A stretch of 64,000 nt of DNA from Deltaproteobacteria bacterium (GCA_020632715.1 JACKFA010000004.1:758190-822189); one strand, 5' to 3'; counted from the stretch's first letter, positions 6,815 through 10,036 are shown. Numbers and translations are program-made. The notes: generated by a model not told the origin, from the sequence alone.

Positions 6815-7804
6815 TCAGCCGGCGCTGGGCGCCTCGCCGCGGTAGAGGCGCGCGATCCGCTCGCGGTGGAGGCGCAGCGGGCTGTCGAAGCGCGAGAGGC
6901 GCGTCCCGCGGAGGTCGGGGCGCGGGTCGGCGAGGCGCTCGATCATCTTGCGGTCGAGCGCCACCTCGCGCGCCGTGAGCGCCCGGAAGAGCGGCGTGAT
7001 CAGGCGGTCGAGGCCGCGCGGGGCGCGCGTCGAGTAGGGGAACACGAAGAGCTCGGTCGTGTGGGCGTCGACCGGCACGAAGAACACGGCGAGGTGCAGG
7101 CGGTCCCCCTTCGGGGCCCCCGTCGCCGCGTCCTCCCACCACTGCGCGTACACGATGTGGACGGGCGAGAAGTAGACCGTCCAGTCGTCGACGAAGGCGT
7201 CGCCGCCCGCGATGCCGAAGAGGCGCTCGACGAGCCGCGGCACGGGCTTCTGCGGGCCGCGGTTCCACACGCGGAGCCAGTCGTCGCCGCTCTCGACCTT
7301 GGTCTCGAGGTCTCCGAGGCTGTCCGGACGGTAGCCGAAGAGGGCGTGCGTCGACGGCGTGTGCTCGACCTCGCAGAAGTTGTCGACCACCGTCTCGAGC
7401 GGCGCGCGCACGCGATCCGTGAGGACGCCCGCCGCGAAGAAGCCAGCGCGGTCGAGCTCGGGGAGCGGGGCGTCGGCGCCCGCCGCCTTCACCCAGATCG
7501 CGCCGTGGCGCTCGGCGACGTCCCAGCGCCGCGCGTCGACCCTCATCCGCGGCGTGCTCGCGCTCTCGCCGACGCCGTCCGGGCCGAAGCGGTAGCCGTG
7601 GTAGGGGCAGACGAGGCGCTCGCCGTCGACCTTGCCGCAGGAGAGGCGCATGCGGCGGTGCGGGCACTCGTCGGTGAGCGCGCCGAGCGCGCCTTGTGCA
7701 GTGCGAAAGAGGACGATCTCCTCGTCCATCAAGGTCACGGAGCGCGGTCGGTACCCCAGATCTCGCGATCGCAAAACGGGGTGCCAGTGGTCGCGCTCAG
7801 CCAC
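6815..7804 (-). CDS. Rieske [2Fe-2S] non-heme iron oxygenase, PaO/Tic55/CMO-like short form.
   Basis: Rieske motif CPHRRMRLSCGKVDGERLVCPYHGYRF (CxH...CxxH) plus mononuclear-iron motif EVEHTPSTH (E/DxxHxxxxH). Start overlaps the stop of the upstream FMO gene by 8 nt. Confidence 0.85.
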   Translation of the reverse strand: MAERDHWHPVLRSRDLGYRPRSVTLMDEEIVLFRTAQGALGALTDECPHRRMRLSCGKVDGERLVCPYHGYRFGPDGVGESASTPRMRVDARRWDVAERHGAIWVKAAGADAPLPELDRAGFFAAGVLTDRVRAPLETVVDNFCEVEHTPSTHALFGYRPDSLGDLETKVESGDDWLRVWNRGPQKPVPRLVERLFGIAGGDAFVDDWTVYFSPVHIVYAQWWEDAATGAPKGDRLHLAVFFVPVDAHTTELFVFPYSTRAPRGLDRLITPLFRALTAREVALDRKMIERLADPRPDLRGTRLSRFDSPLRLHRERIARLYRGEAPSAG

Positions 7805-8990
7805 GCGCCGCCTCGCGCGTGGCGCCGACCGTCGGCTTCGTCGGCTTCTGGTCGCCGGCGATGGCGGCGGCGATGCGCTCGGCCTCGAGGGCGCTCTCGC
7901 GGAGGGCGCCGGTGGTCGGGTTCCGGAAGCCGCAGAAGTAGAGGCCGGGGATCTGCGCCTCCGCGCCGTGCACCGTGGGGTAGCCGCGGTCGTCGACCAC
8001 GCGCTCCGCGCCGTCGAGGAAGCGGTCGAGCGCCGCGCGGTAGCCGGTCGCGAGCACGATGGCGTCGAAGCGCGCGCTCTGCCCGTCGACGAAGCGCACG
8101 ACGTCGCCGTCGACGCGCTCGACCCCCTTCGTGACGCGGATCGCGCCCTTCTTGACGAGGCCGATGGTGCCGACGTCGATGAGCGGGACGCGGCCCTCGG
8201 CGGTGAGGATCTCCATGGGCCCGCGCGCCGGGCGCTCGAAGCCGAAGCGCCGGAGGTCGCCCATGACGAGCCGCACGAGCGGCGCCGACAGGCGGTCCTG
8301 CGTCTTCGGGGAGAAGCGCGAGAGCAGGATGGCCGTGCGCTGGATGGGCATGCCGAGGACGTCGCGCGGGACGACGTGCACGGGGCTCCGCACGACGATC
8401 GCCGGGCGCGCGCCGTGCTCGTGGAGGTCGACCGCGATCTCGCCGCCGGAGTTGCCGACGCCGACGACCAGCACGTCCTTGCCGGCGAAGCGGGCGCCGC
8501 TGCCGTAGGTCGCCGAGTGGACGACCTCGCCCGGGAACGCGTCGAGCCCGGGGAAGTCGGGGCGCTTCGGGACGCCGTTGTAGCCCGTCGCGACGACGAG
8601 GTGCCGCGCGAGGTAGCCGGGGCCGGGGTCGACGTCGACGCGCCAGCGCTCGCCGTCGCGGCGGGCGCGCGTGACGGTCGCGCCGAGGCGCGGCGCGATC
8701 CCGAAGCGCCGCGCGTAGCTCTCGAGGTACTCGACCACCTGCGCGCGCGAGGGATAGGTGGGCCACGCCTTCGGCATCGGGAAGCGCGGCAGCGACGACC
8801 ACGGCCGCGCCGTGTGGAGGTGGAGCCGCTCGTAGTGGGTGCGCCAGGCGGAGCCGACGGCGGTGGCGCGGTCGAGGACGACGTGGTCCACGCCGGCCTC
8901 GCCGAGGCAGGCGGCCACGGCGAGCCCGCTCGGGCCGGCGCCGATGACGAGCGTGTCGACGGTGACGGCGTCGCCCGCGGCGTCCGTCAC
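7797..8990 (-). CDS. Flavin-containing monooxygenase (FMO/YUCCA-like), 397 aa, GTG start.
   Basis: FAD motif GAGPSG, NADPH motif GVGNSG, and FMO-identifying motif FPGEVVHSATY (FxGxxxHxxxY). The real part is the C-terminal 397 aa of track ORF 7797..10799. The GTG start overlaps the TGA of the upstream methyltransferase (GTGA). Confidence 0.85.
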   Translation of the reverse strand: MTDAAGDAVTVDTLVIGAGPSGLAVAACLGEAGVDHVVLDRATAVGSAWRTHYERLHLHTARPWSSLPRFPMPKAWPTYPSRAQVVEYLESYARRFGIAPRLGATVTRARRDGERWRVDVDPGPGYLARHLVVATGYNGVPKRPDFPGLDAFPGEVVHSATYGSGARFAGKDVLVVGVGNSGGEIAVDLHEHGARPAIVVRSPVHVVPRDVLGMPIQRTAILLSRFSPKTQDRLSAPLVRLVMGDLRRFGFERPARGPMEILTAEGRVPLIDVGTIGLVKKGAIRVTKGVERVDGDVVRFVDGQSARFDAIVLATGYRAALDRFLDGAERVVDDRGYPTVHGAEAQIPGLYFCGFRNPTTGALRESALEAERIAAAIAGDQKPTKPTVGATREAARG

Positions 8991-10036
8991 GGTTGGACCG
9001 CCGCGGGCTTCGTGGCGATGACCGCCTTCGCGACGAAGGTCGGGCGCACGGCGTGCACGGTGAAGCCGACGTCGCGCAGGAGGTCCTCGACGGGGGCCTT
9101 GAGCCAGCCCTTGAAGTAGGGCTCGTGGTAGACCTCGGGGAAGCCGTCGAGGAACCAGCGGATCTCGGCGGCGTCGACGAGCTGCGCGCTGTCGAGGAAG
9201 GCGAGGGTGCCGCCCGGCCGCAAGACGCGGAAGAGCTCGGCGGCGACGCGCTCGCGGGCGTCGCGCGGGAGCTCGTGGAAGAGGAAGATGCAGGAGACGG
9301 CGTCGAACGCGCCGTCGTCGTAGGGCATGGCCTCGGCGTTCGCCTGCGTGACGACCGCGCCCTCGGCGACGCCGCGCGCGTGCTCGGCGTAGTGCGGCGA
9401 GAGGTCGAGCCCCTCGAGGCGCGCGTCGGGGAGGAGGTCGCCGAGGAGGCGCAGGAAGCGGCCGGTGCCGCAGGCGACGTCGAGGAGGCGCGGGGCGTCG
9501 ACGGCGCGCGCGGCGTCCACCAGGTCGGGGACGATGGCGCGGCGCATGATGTCCGCGGCGCCGCCGAAGAGGAGCTCGACCGCGGGGTCGTAGATGCGCG
9601 CGGAGTGCGCGGAGAGCCAGCCGTCCGACTGCCAGTGGAAGGTGCGGCGGTAGTAGTGCGGGTAGTCGCCGAGGTCGACGTCGCCCGGGAGCTCGGCGTA
9701 GCGGCGCGAGCGCGCGCGGCGCAGCACCCGCGGGAGGTCGAGGAGGCCCTCGGGGAGCACCTTCAGGTACTCGCGGAGGCCGGTCTTGAAGAGGAGCGAG
9801 GTCGGGTAGTAGCCGGCGTCGGCGGCGCGCAGGTCGCCGTCGAGGAGGGCGCGGAAGCGGCGCTGCAGGGCCTTGGCCTGCTCGGCGGGCGGGGCGCCGC
9901 GGTCGGGGTTCATCAGCGCGTGGAAGCCGCGCATGAGGAGCCCGGAGACCACGGCCATGCCGATGCGCTGGGCGCGGTAGCCGGCGTCGCGCAGGCCGGT
10001 CGTGGTGGCGTTCTTGAGGTCGAGCGCGGCGGACAT
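8987..10036 (-). CDS. Class I SAM-dependent methyltransferase with a ~170 aa N-terminal extension.
   Basis: Motif I LDVACGTGRF and post-I acidic residue. Track ORF as given. Translationally coupled to the downstream FMO. Confidence 0.85.
   Translation of the reverse strand: MSAALDLKNATTTGLRDAGYRAQRIGMAVVSGLLMRGFHALMNPDRGAPPAEQAKALQRRFRALLDGDLRAADAGYYPTSLLFKTGLREYLKVLPEGLLDLPRVLRRARSRRYAELPGDVDLGDYPHYYRRTFHWQSDGWLSAHSARIYDPAVELLFGGAADIMRRAIVPDLVDAARAVDAPRLLDVACGTGRFLRLLGDLLPDARLEGLDLSPHYAEHARGVAEGAVVTQANAEAMPYDDGAFDAVSCIFLFHELPRDARERVAAELFRVLRPGGTLAFLDSAQLVDAAEIRWFLDGFPEVYHEPYFKGWLKAPVEDLLRDVGFTVHAVRPTFVAKAVIATKPAAVQP

Follow-up and report, generated by a model that had tools for sequence, protein, structure and literature searches.

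A coupled methyltransferase, flavin monooxygenase and Rieske oxygenase operon in a deltaproteobacterial genome, and the conserved oxygenase gene pair that it contains

Rieske non-heme iron monooxygenases of the VanA/DdmC/NdmA/SxtT-GxtA group include the O-demethylases of vanillate, dicamba and guaiacol, the N-demethylases of methylxanthines and the saxitoxin hydroxylases. These enzymes are about 330 amino acids (aa) long, lack a β subunit, and combine an N-terminal Rieske domain with a VanA_C-type catalytic domain, with CxH...CxxH and xxHxxxxH motifs. The YUCCA/YUC-like and type II (SMFMO-type) flavin-containing monooxygenases (FMOs), in turn, are proteins of about 380-400 aa with two Rossmann motifs, an FxGxxxHxxxY signature, an ATGY motif and the Pfam FMO-like domain; a published phylogeny of the class B enzymes reports the bacterial YUC-like FMOs, from Beta- and Deltaproteobacteria and Bacteroidetes, as the closest relatives of the plant YUCCAs, and places SMFMO in type IIc (PMC7570161). 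Here we describe a locus in which genes of both kinds adjoin and overlap. The window, that is, the whole stretch of 64,000 nucleotides (nt) that was analysed from a Deltaproteobacteria bacterium (GCA_020632715.1 JACKFA010000004.1:758190-822189), carries on its minus strand three consecutive genes that encode a methyltransferase (MT), an FMO and a Rieske oxygenase. Each of the three proteins belongs to a known superfamily and lies outside any characterised family, in an uncharacterised orthologous group. Literature searches returned no description of a coupled FMO-Rieske cassette, and searches on the combination of Rieske oxygenase, FMO and methyltransferase in myxobacteria, on the structure 8Z12 and on the protein WP_050434623 found nothing.

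The three genes constitute a genuine operon of coupled genes (table). The first-pass annotation of this DNA had described them as co-directional and translationally coupled through overlaps at both junctions, and the open reading frames (ORFs), the junction sequences and the GC content at third codon positions (GC3) all agree with that description; moreover, the overlaps are kept across related loci. GC3 reaches 0.994 in the MT gene, 0.992 in the FMO gene and 0.955 in the Rieske gene, compared with 0.53-0.78 in alternative frames that overlap them. In the FMO frame, the coding signal disappears 5' of position 8990, where GC3 is 0.66, and this drop supports the GTG codon at 8990 as the start of the FMO gene. 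An independent gene caller applied to an identical Logan contig (SRR12358675) delineated the same genes, for proteins of 349, 397 and 329 aa. The window as a whole has a GC content of about 75 % and a Myxococcota-like look, with Ser/Thr kinases that contain tetratricopeptide (TPR) repeats, a DUF4215 protein, and closest homologs in metagenome-assembled genomes (MAGs) of Myxococcota.

A scan of genomes with an alignment of Rieske proteins, limited to one genome per species, yielded 80 loci with orthologs of 40-59 % identity, which come from Myxococcota, Planctomycetota, Hydrogenedentota, Leptospiraceae, cyanobacteria and a few other groups. When the MT, FMO and Rieske proteins were compared by tblastn with these loci, an FMO ortholog (40-57 % identity) was found directly 5' of the Rieske gene in 31 of them, comprising most of the Myxococcota, all well-covered Leptospiraceae, the Hydrogenedentota and one planctomycete, and the complete trio was found in only four (L001, L002, L003 and L007). 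The pair is also present in the cultured Chondromyces crocatus Cm c5 (CP012159.1, positions 9919960-9933069; FMO AKT43097.1), with a gap of 20 nt between the genes, and its culturable carriers include strains of Polyangium and Minicystis. A corresponding scan of metagenomes with an MT alignment gave another 80 loci, among which only the closest MT orthologs (51-56 % identity) are in the trio layout (L084, L085, L087, L099 and L123; a further locus, L086, ends after the FMO gene). Of 36 loci examined for the distance from the FMO stop codon to the Rieske start codon, 30 have values of -14 to +10 nt. The MT and FMO genes share a 4-nt overlap in eight of the nine trio loci, and in the remaining one they overlap by 1 nt, so that these overlaps are conserved rather than due to chance. 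In a neighbour-joining tree of the Rieske proteins, the trio occupies a single Myxococcota subclade that contains the protein from the window; the pair fills the rest of the Myxococcota along with the Leptospiraceae and Hydrogenedentota, and the solitary Rieske genes make up the planctomycete and cyanobacterial clades. What evolution has conserved as a unit is therefore the pair of FMO and Rieske genes and not the trio, and the MT gene joined the pair once, late, in one subclade of Myxococcota. The earlier description of a three-gene operon holds insofar as the trio recurs in four genome loci, five or six metagenome loci and close relatives, whereas the conserved core is the pair. In one Polyangiales MAG (L033:8889-10355), the FMO frame runs past the Rieske start by approximately 355 nt before a stop codon is reached; the two genes could overlap in an unusual way, or the extension could stem from a frameshift or from faulty assembly.

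The Rieske protein matches the Pfam domains Rieske (PF00355, 66.4 bits, cut-off 20.3) and VanA_C (PF19112, 38.3 bits, cut-off 23.5), and the Pfam scan of this protein produced no match at E<=0.01 to the PaO domain (PF08417) or to Ring_hydroxyl_A (PF00848). Sequence and profile searches of the PDB ranked SxtT/GxtA, NdmA/B, DdmC and guaiacol O-demethylase at the top. Furthermore, an AlphaFold2 (AF2) model of the protein, with a mean predicted local distance difference test score (pLDDT) of 89.9, superimposes over its full length on DdmC with a template modelling (TM) score of 0.83, on guaiacol demethylase (7qwt) with 0.80, on SxtT/GxtA and NdmA with 0.72-0.75, and on KshA with 0.71. The protein is accordingly a VanA/DdmC/SxtT/NdmA-type α3 Rieske non-heme iron monooxygenase, and the enzyme is likely a homotrimer. 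Of the first-pass label, "PaO/CMO-like Rieske oxygenase", the second half stands, and the first does not, given that VanA_C is the sole catalytic-domain match and that the nearest structures are DdmC, SxtT/GxtA, NdmA and guaiacol demethylase. The CxH…CxxH and ExxHxxxxH motifs on which that label was based are present and do not vary among 23 orthologs. The latter aligns with the DxxHxxxxH motif of SxtT/GxtA, and the position of the bridging carboxylate is taken by Glu (E145) where SxtT has Asp. Another acidic residue, D284, is invariant in the ortholog alignment and, judging from the sequence, would be the carboxylate ligand that completes a 2-His-1-carboxylate iron site with H148 and H153. 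Compared with the described members of the group, the Rieske protein of the window is only about 18-21 % identical, with sequence matches limited to the N-terminal half, has Glu in place of Asp as the bridging residue, and is encoded next to an FMO gene instead of a VanB/NdmD-type reductase gene.

The best NCBIfam match of the Rieske protein is SdmA, likewise a Rieske oxygenase, of about 350 aa. SdmA and SdmB jointly constitute the bacterial sterol C-4 demethylase, and SdmA is present in myxobacteria and Calothrix (PMC10202945). A role in sterol demethylation was suspected because orthologs of the Rieske protein occur in myxobacteria, Gemmataceae and Calothrix, and was rejected: the match amounts to 57.7 bits against a cut-off of 600 (NF052579), only the Rieske domain is aligned, and neither in the window nor among conserved neighbours was there a gene for an SdmB-type short-chain dehydrogenase/reductase, for oxidosqualene cyclase or for any other sterol function.

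The FMO matches the Pfam domains Pyr_redox_3 (109.8 bits, cut-off 30) and FMO-like (PF00743, 90.8 bits, cut-off 22). In an alignment of the window protein with 35 orthologs encoded beside Rieske genes (36 sequences), the key positions of its motifs are conserved, namely, the two dinucleotide-binding GxGxxG motifs, the FxGxxxHxxxY motif with an invariant His, and the ATGY motif (LATGY, residues 313-317). The best match in the PDB is 8z12, a structure titled "flavin-dependent monooxygenase" (E=1.7e-43 over the full length, about 35 % identity), followed by the short type II enzymes SMFMO (4a9w, E=7e-38), CFMO and PSFMO. The motifs, all intact, identify the protein as a class B flavin-containing monooxygenase, in agreement with the initial call of a true FMO, although our label YUCCA-like/type II spans both the YUC-like and the type IIc sub-groups. 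The protein differs from the YUCCA and SMFMO-type enzymes in its identity of about 35 % to the best solved structure and in the coupling of its gene to a Rieske gene, for which the literature searched gave no precedent. Two more specific assignments were considered and dismissed. The fingerprint of Baeyer-Villiger monooxygenases (BVMOs) is FxGxxxHxxxW[P/D] (PMC7570161), whereas the motif here ends in Tyr rather than Trp, and type I BVMOs are about 540 aa long compared with 397 aa for the present FMO. The top NCBIfam match, ArsO, an FMO of ars islands, falls far under its cut-off (NF040505, 173.1 bits against 425), and the window contains no ars genes, which speaks against an ArsO/ArsM-type arsenic metabolism. 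Separately, FMO homologs of about 51 % identity were found in two unrelated genomes (L165:2781-6185 and L166:2856-6179) within gene triads that also encode a Zn-dependent alcohol dehydrogenase and an esterase similar to polyhydroxybutyrate (PHB) depolymerase, and that lack a Rieske gene. By analogy, such triads, which follow the classical Baeyer-Villiger catabolic layout, suggest chemistry of that type in this FMO family; in the operon of the window, by contrast, the partners are the Rieske oxygenase and the methyltransferase, with no esterase or dehydrogenase.

The close association of the two oxygenase genes raises the possibility that the FMO-like flavoprotein serves the Rieske oxygenase alone, either by passing electrons to it from NAD(P)H or as its obligate partner in a complex. 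That would amount to a new two-component Rieske system in which a class B flavoprotein replaces the ferredoxin-NADP reductase (FNR)-type or glutathione-reductase-type reductase together with the ferredoxin. The overlap or gap of at most 10 nt in 30 of 36 loci from several phyla suggests equimolar production of the two proteins, no VanB/NdmD-like or FNR-type reductase or ferredoxin was detected among the Pfam-scanned genes of the 64-kb window, none is conserved beside the Rieske gene in the 80 loci, and the FMO has weak matches to the thioredoxin-reductase-like ferredoxin-NADP reductases 5ygq and 2zbw (E of about 5e-11). However, the FxGxxxHxxxY and ATGY motifs, which mark oxygenating enzymes, are retained throughout the 36 sequences, the FMO contains no Fe-S domain, the planctomycete and cyanobacterial Rieske orthologs have no FMO gene next to them, and the FMO homologs of about 51 % identity in the Baeyer-Villiger-type contexts do without a Rieske gene. 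Moreover, unlinked reductases are common for this class of Rieske oxygenases, KshA/KshB being an example. We consider a role as electron donor or complex partner improbable; the electron supply of the Rieske enzyme may be encoded elsewhere in the genome. The same slim chance is all that we allow for the broader proposition that the pair represents either a new two-protein oxygenase system, whether an electron donor or a substrate-channelling complex, or the ancestral bacterial context of YUC-like FMOs, the proposed source of the YUCCA auxin enzymes of plants.

The relationship of the FMO to the YUCCAs brings in an auxin-like pathway, which is a sub-case of the module that we favour below: the YUC-like FMO would decarboxylate an aryl- or indole-pyruvate oxidatively, the Rieske oxygenase would hydroxylate the resulting arylacetate, and in the clade of the window the MT would methylate the aryl- or indole-pyruvate. 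Many homologs of the FMO bear the JGI name indole-3-pyruvate monooxygenase, an assignment based on KEGG Orthology (KO), and the FMO contains the blocks HYERLHLHT, VHVVPR, ATGY and GLYFCGF, which we take to be similar to motifs of the YUCCAs. In four closely related Polyangium genomes (L010:7638-8834, L013:7632-8834, L036:3838-5040 and L038:7433-8686), the FMO-Rieske pair is directly preceded by a same-strand gene for a class I/II aminotransferase, an order that, as an analogy, hints at the two-step logic of plant TAA followed by YUCCA; and YUC-like FMOs of Deltaproteobacteria are reported to be among the closest relatives of the plant enzymes (PMC7570161). On the other side, the aminotransferase linkage is confined to one lineage, there is no aminotransferase gene near the operon in the window, the label of the FMO covers type IIc as well as the YUC-like clade, and its closest PDB matches are SMFMO-type enzymes and an actinobacterial-looking FMO. 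An arylacetate pathway is therefore, in our estimate, unlikely.

The methyltransferase matches Methyltransf_25 (72.8 bits, cut-off 27) as well as Methyltransf_11, 12, 23 and 31, so that the domains and motifs of all three proteins pass the Pfam cut-offs. Its catalytic domain, at approximately residues 177-303, follows a conserved helical N-terminal extension of about 170 residues (1-170). In an alignment of 26 sequences, motif I, which binds S-adenosylmethionine (SAM), has L185, D186, T191 and G192 invariant and A188, C189, G190, R193 and F194 nearly so, and D211, the acidic residue after β2, is nearly invariant. Full-length homologs of about 50 % identity form a large family marked by the invariant signatures YPxYYxRxFHWQxDGW and YHEPY. 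The AF2 model (pLDDT 90.9) has the class I fold and includes a confidently modelled N-terminal extension; a fold search of the PDB retrieved generic class I methyltransferases only, and none specific for the extension. Motif I, the Pfam matches and the modelled fold together bear out the annotation as an N-terminally extended class I methyltransferase, with an extension that is conserved in the family. The top NCBIfam matches are to quinone-modifying enzymes, RquA (66.7 bits against a cut-off of 175) and MenG_MenH_UbiE (52 bits against 158); the conserved 170-aa extension is foreign to the RquA and UbiE-MenG families and no quinone-pathway genes are located nearby, which leaves a role in quinone modification unsupported. 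Two observations concern the stand-alone members of the MT family: in 16 of the 80 MT loci (the L092-L148 cluster), they precede a gene whose small product, of about 115-150 aa, is predicted to be secreted or to reside in the membrane, and in one locus (L081:5335-7453) the gene for a MiaE-like di-iron protein lies divergently upstream.

Clustering of all ORFs of the 80 Rieske and 80 MT loci against each other disclosed no conserved neighbour beyond the FMO and MT genes. The neighbours encountered include genes for TANGO2-like, SnoaL-like and DJ-1/PfpI proteins, a P450, glutathione synthetase (GshB), MarR, GNAT and a glycosyltransferase, and in Leptospiraceae for acetoacetate-decarboxylase-like and SET-domain proteins. 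In two Myxococcota MAGs, a gene of the TANGO2 family (PF05742) lies directly 5' of the FMO-Rieske pair (L040:8204-8902 and L069:7795-8826). These results bear on the "tailoring" function originally assigned to the operon, according to which the three enzymes would belong to a specialised-metabolite pathway whose core genes are elsewhere in the genome. A methyltransferase plus two oxygenases make a typical tailoring set, and SxtT/GxtA, which are natural-product enzymes, are among the structural relatives of the Rieske protein. However, a Pfam scan of all GC3-supported ORFs detected no polyketide synthase (PKS), non-ribosomal peptide synthetase (NRPS) or terpene synthase gene, nor any RiPP core gene, in the 64-kb window, which extends to the entire window the initial remark that no such gene is nearby, and no core scaffold gene is a conserved neighbour in the 80 Rieske loci with 10-kb flanks. 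In addition, four or more phyla share the pair, with identities of 40-59 %, which is unusual for the tailoring genes of one natural product. Neither the window nor the two sets of 80 loci support a scaffold pathway, and we regard a tailoring role as quite unlikely.

We favour, with about an even chance of its being correct, the reading that the operon encodes a self-contained, co-translated module of three enzymes, which together modify a single small metabolite. Its ancient core would be the two-gene FMO-Rieske cassette. The FMO would use NAD(P)H and O2 to form a flavin C4a-(hydro)peroxide and act on a ketone or α-keto acid, in a Baeyer-Villiger-type reaction or by oxidative decarboxylation, or else oxygenate a heteroatom; the Rieske monooxygenase would receive electrons from a reductase or ferredoxin whose gene lies at another site of the genome, and either hydroxylate or demethylate the FMO product or the substrate that the two enzymes share; and the MT, recruited ahead of the pair in the Myxococcota subclade that includes this genome, would add a methylation step. 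The module is found outside PKS, NRPS and terpene clusters. It would more likely act on a common compound, endogenous or from the environment, whether to break it down, to detoxify it or to modify a signal. Substrates bearing a carbonyl, α-keto-acid or aromatic group appear most plausible, and there are weak hints at α-keto-acid or Baeyer-Villiger chemistry. The first-pass proposal of a small-molecule modification pathway with two oxygenase chemistries and a methylation survives in its enzyme families and loses its scaffold-tailoring part. The gene structure, the family assignments, the intact cofactor and catalytic motifs and the conserved adjacency and coupling are observed, whereas we infer that the enzymes share a pathway, in what order they react, which class of substrate they use and that the reductase is an external one.

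Several results weigh against such a module. MT orthologs that are just as similar mostly stand alone, as do otherwise those of about 45-53 % identity; the Rieske orthologs of Planctomycetota and cyanobacteria lack an adjoining FMO gene, from which it follows that the two oxygenases are not strictly mutually required; no reductase or ferredoxin gene accompanies the operon in the window; the same-strand neighbours within operon distance are heterogeneous; the aminotransferases of the Polyangium loci, being 89-94 % identical, represent one lineage only; and none of the three proteins reaches an NCBIfam equivalog cut-off, so that no function can be transferred to them. Some of these results fit the alternative that the three genes have no functional relation and are joined in one operon for co-expression only, for example in a general response to oxidative or xenobiotic stress: MT orthologs are usually solitary, as are the Rieske orthologs of the two groups just named, and the neighbours include such stress-type genes as those for DJ-1/PfpI, glutathione synthetase and MarR. 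Nevertheless, the adjacency and the start/stop coupling have held over a deep divergence, between Leptospiraceae and Myxococcota, at 40-44 % identity, and we judge a merely co-expressed set of genes to be rather unlikely.

Table. Positions of the operon, its junctions and sequence motifs, and the adjoining peptidase gene, counted from the first nucleotide of the window
Feature	Position	Strand	Remarks
MT gene	8987-10036	minus	349 aa, ATG start
FMO gene	7797-8990	minus	397 aa, GTG start
Rieske gene	6815-7804	minus	329 aa, GTG start
Shine-Dalgarno-like AGGAGG	10045-10050	minus	8 nt 5' of the MT ATG; direct sequence reading
MT/FMO junction, GTGA, 4-nt overlap	8990-8987	minus	FMO start codon on MT stop codon
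FMO/Rieske junction, GTGGCTGA, 8-nt overlap	7804-7797	minus	Rieske GTG within the FMO 3' end
MT, SAM-binding motif I, LDVACGTGRF, residues 185-194	9455-9484	minus	26-sequence alignment
FMO, flavin adenine dinucleotide (FAD)-binding GxGxxG, GAGPSG, residues 16-21	8928-8945	minus	kept in 36-sequence alignment
FMO, identifying motif FxGxxxHxxxY, FPGEVVHSATY, residues 152-162 (F152, G154, H158, Y162)	8505-8537	minus	His158 invariant
FMO, NAD(P)H-binding GxGxxG, GVGNSG, residues 177-182	8445-8462	minus	36-sequence alignment
Rieske [2Fe-2S] ligands, CPH...CPYH (C47, H49, C66, H69)	7598-7666	minus	invariant, 23-sequence alignment
Rieske protein, mononuclear iron motif ExxHxxxxH (E145, H148, H153)	7346-7372	minus	invariant, 23-sequence alignment
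M3 peptidase	4496-6760 (listed ORF, TTG at 6760)	minus	likelier ATG 6721-6719
AGGAGG of the M3 peptidase	6733-6728	minus	precedes ATG 6721-6719

Downstream, the operon is followed by a gene whose initial identification as an M3 peptidase was confirmed. The likely ATG of this gene is separated from the Rieske stop codon by 93 nt, and the sole terminator-like hairpin in the region 4300-10500 (4451-4426) lies 3' of the peptidase gene, which makes co-transcription with the operon possible. A functional link was rejected: the gene has its own AGGAGG-ATG and recurs downstream of the Rieske gene in one locus only, L001, where 1.2 kb and an intervening gene separate the two. We treat it as a mere neighbour.

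In the opposite direction, two ORFs diverge from the operon on the plus strand (10231-11031 and 11044/11072-12262, within 10231-13340) that show a strong coding signal and no match to Pfam or NCBIfam; they are followed by a PT-HINT/Hint-domain protein (12342-13340, plus strand), and the three may form a polymorphic-toxin-like cassette. Elsewhere in the window, two giant surface proteins are predicted on the plus strand. One of them (20427-26162, 1911 aa) contains CTDC repeats of the Dictyostelium type together with an adhesive domain of the ice-binding-like kind, and the other (39114-49532, 3472 aa) combines Ig-like domains with bacterial TSP3 repeats. Genes for small membrane proteins, namely, DUF2752, a CD225/interferon-induced-transmembrane-like protein with a SHOCT domain, and a further SHOCT protein, are located at 26940-28066 on the minus strand. 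An arginine-biosynthesis cluster (51545-54851, plus strand) encodes an ornithine/aspartate carbamoyltransferase, an amino-acid kinase and NAT (N-acetylglutamate synthase/kinase-like), and a semialdehyde dehydrogenase of the ArgC type; between the second and third of these ORFs, as called, there is an overlap of about 150 nt, probably because one start was miscalled. Large ORFs with no Pfam match are found at 35736-39029, 55154-59065 and, on the minus strand, 2-4495.

At present, the locus is best viewed as an ordinary orphan oxidative operon that comprises new enzymes of familiar kinds rather than a new type of system. What is new and useful is the finding that the genes for a YUCCA-like FMO and for a Rieske monooxygenase of the VanA type have stayed paired, with start/stop coupling, over the deep divergence of Myxococcota, Leptospiraceae and Hydrogenedentota, which provides a handle on the function of the bacterial YUC-like/type II FMOs and of a widespread orphan clade of Rieske oxygenases. 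Were the FMO to prove the redox partner of the Rieske oxygenase, a further class would be added to the electron-transfer chains known for Rieske enzymes; and a role of the pair in making or degrading arylacetates, if there is one, would be relevant to how plant auxin biosynthesis arose from bacteria.

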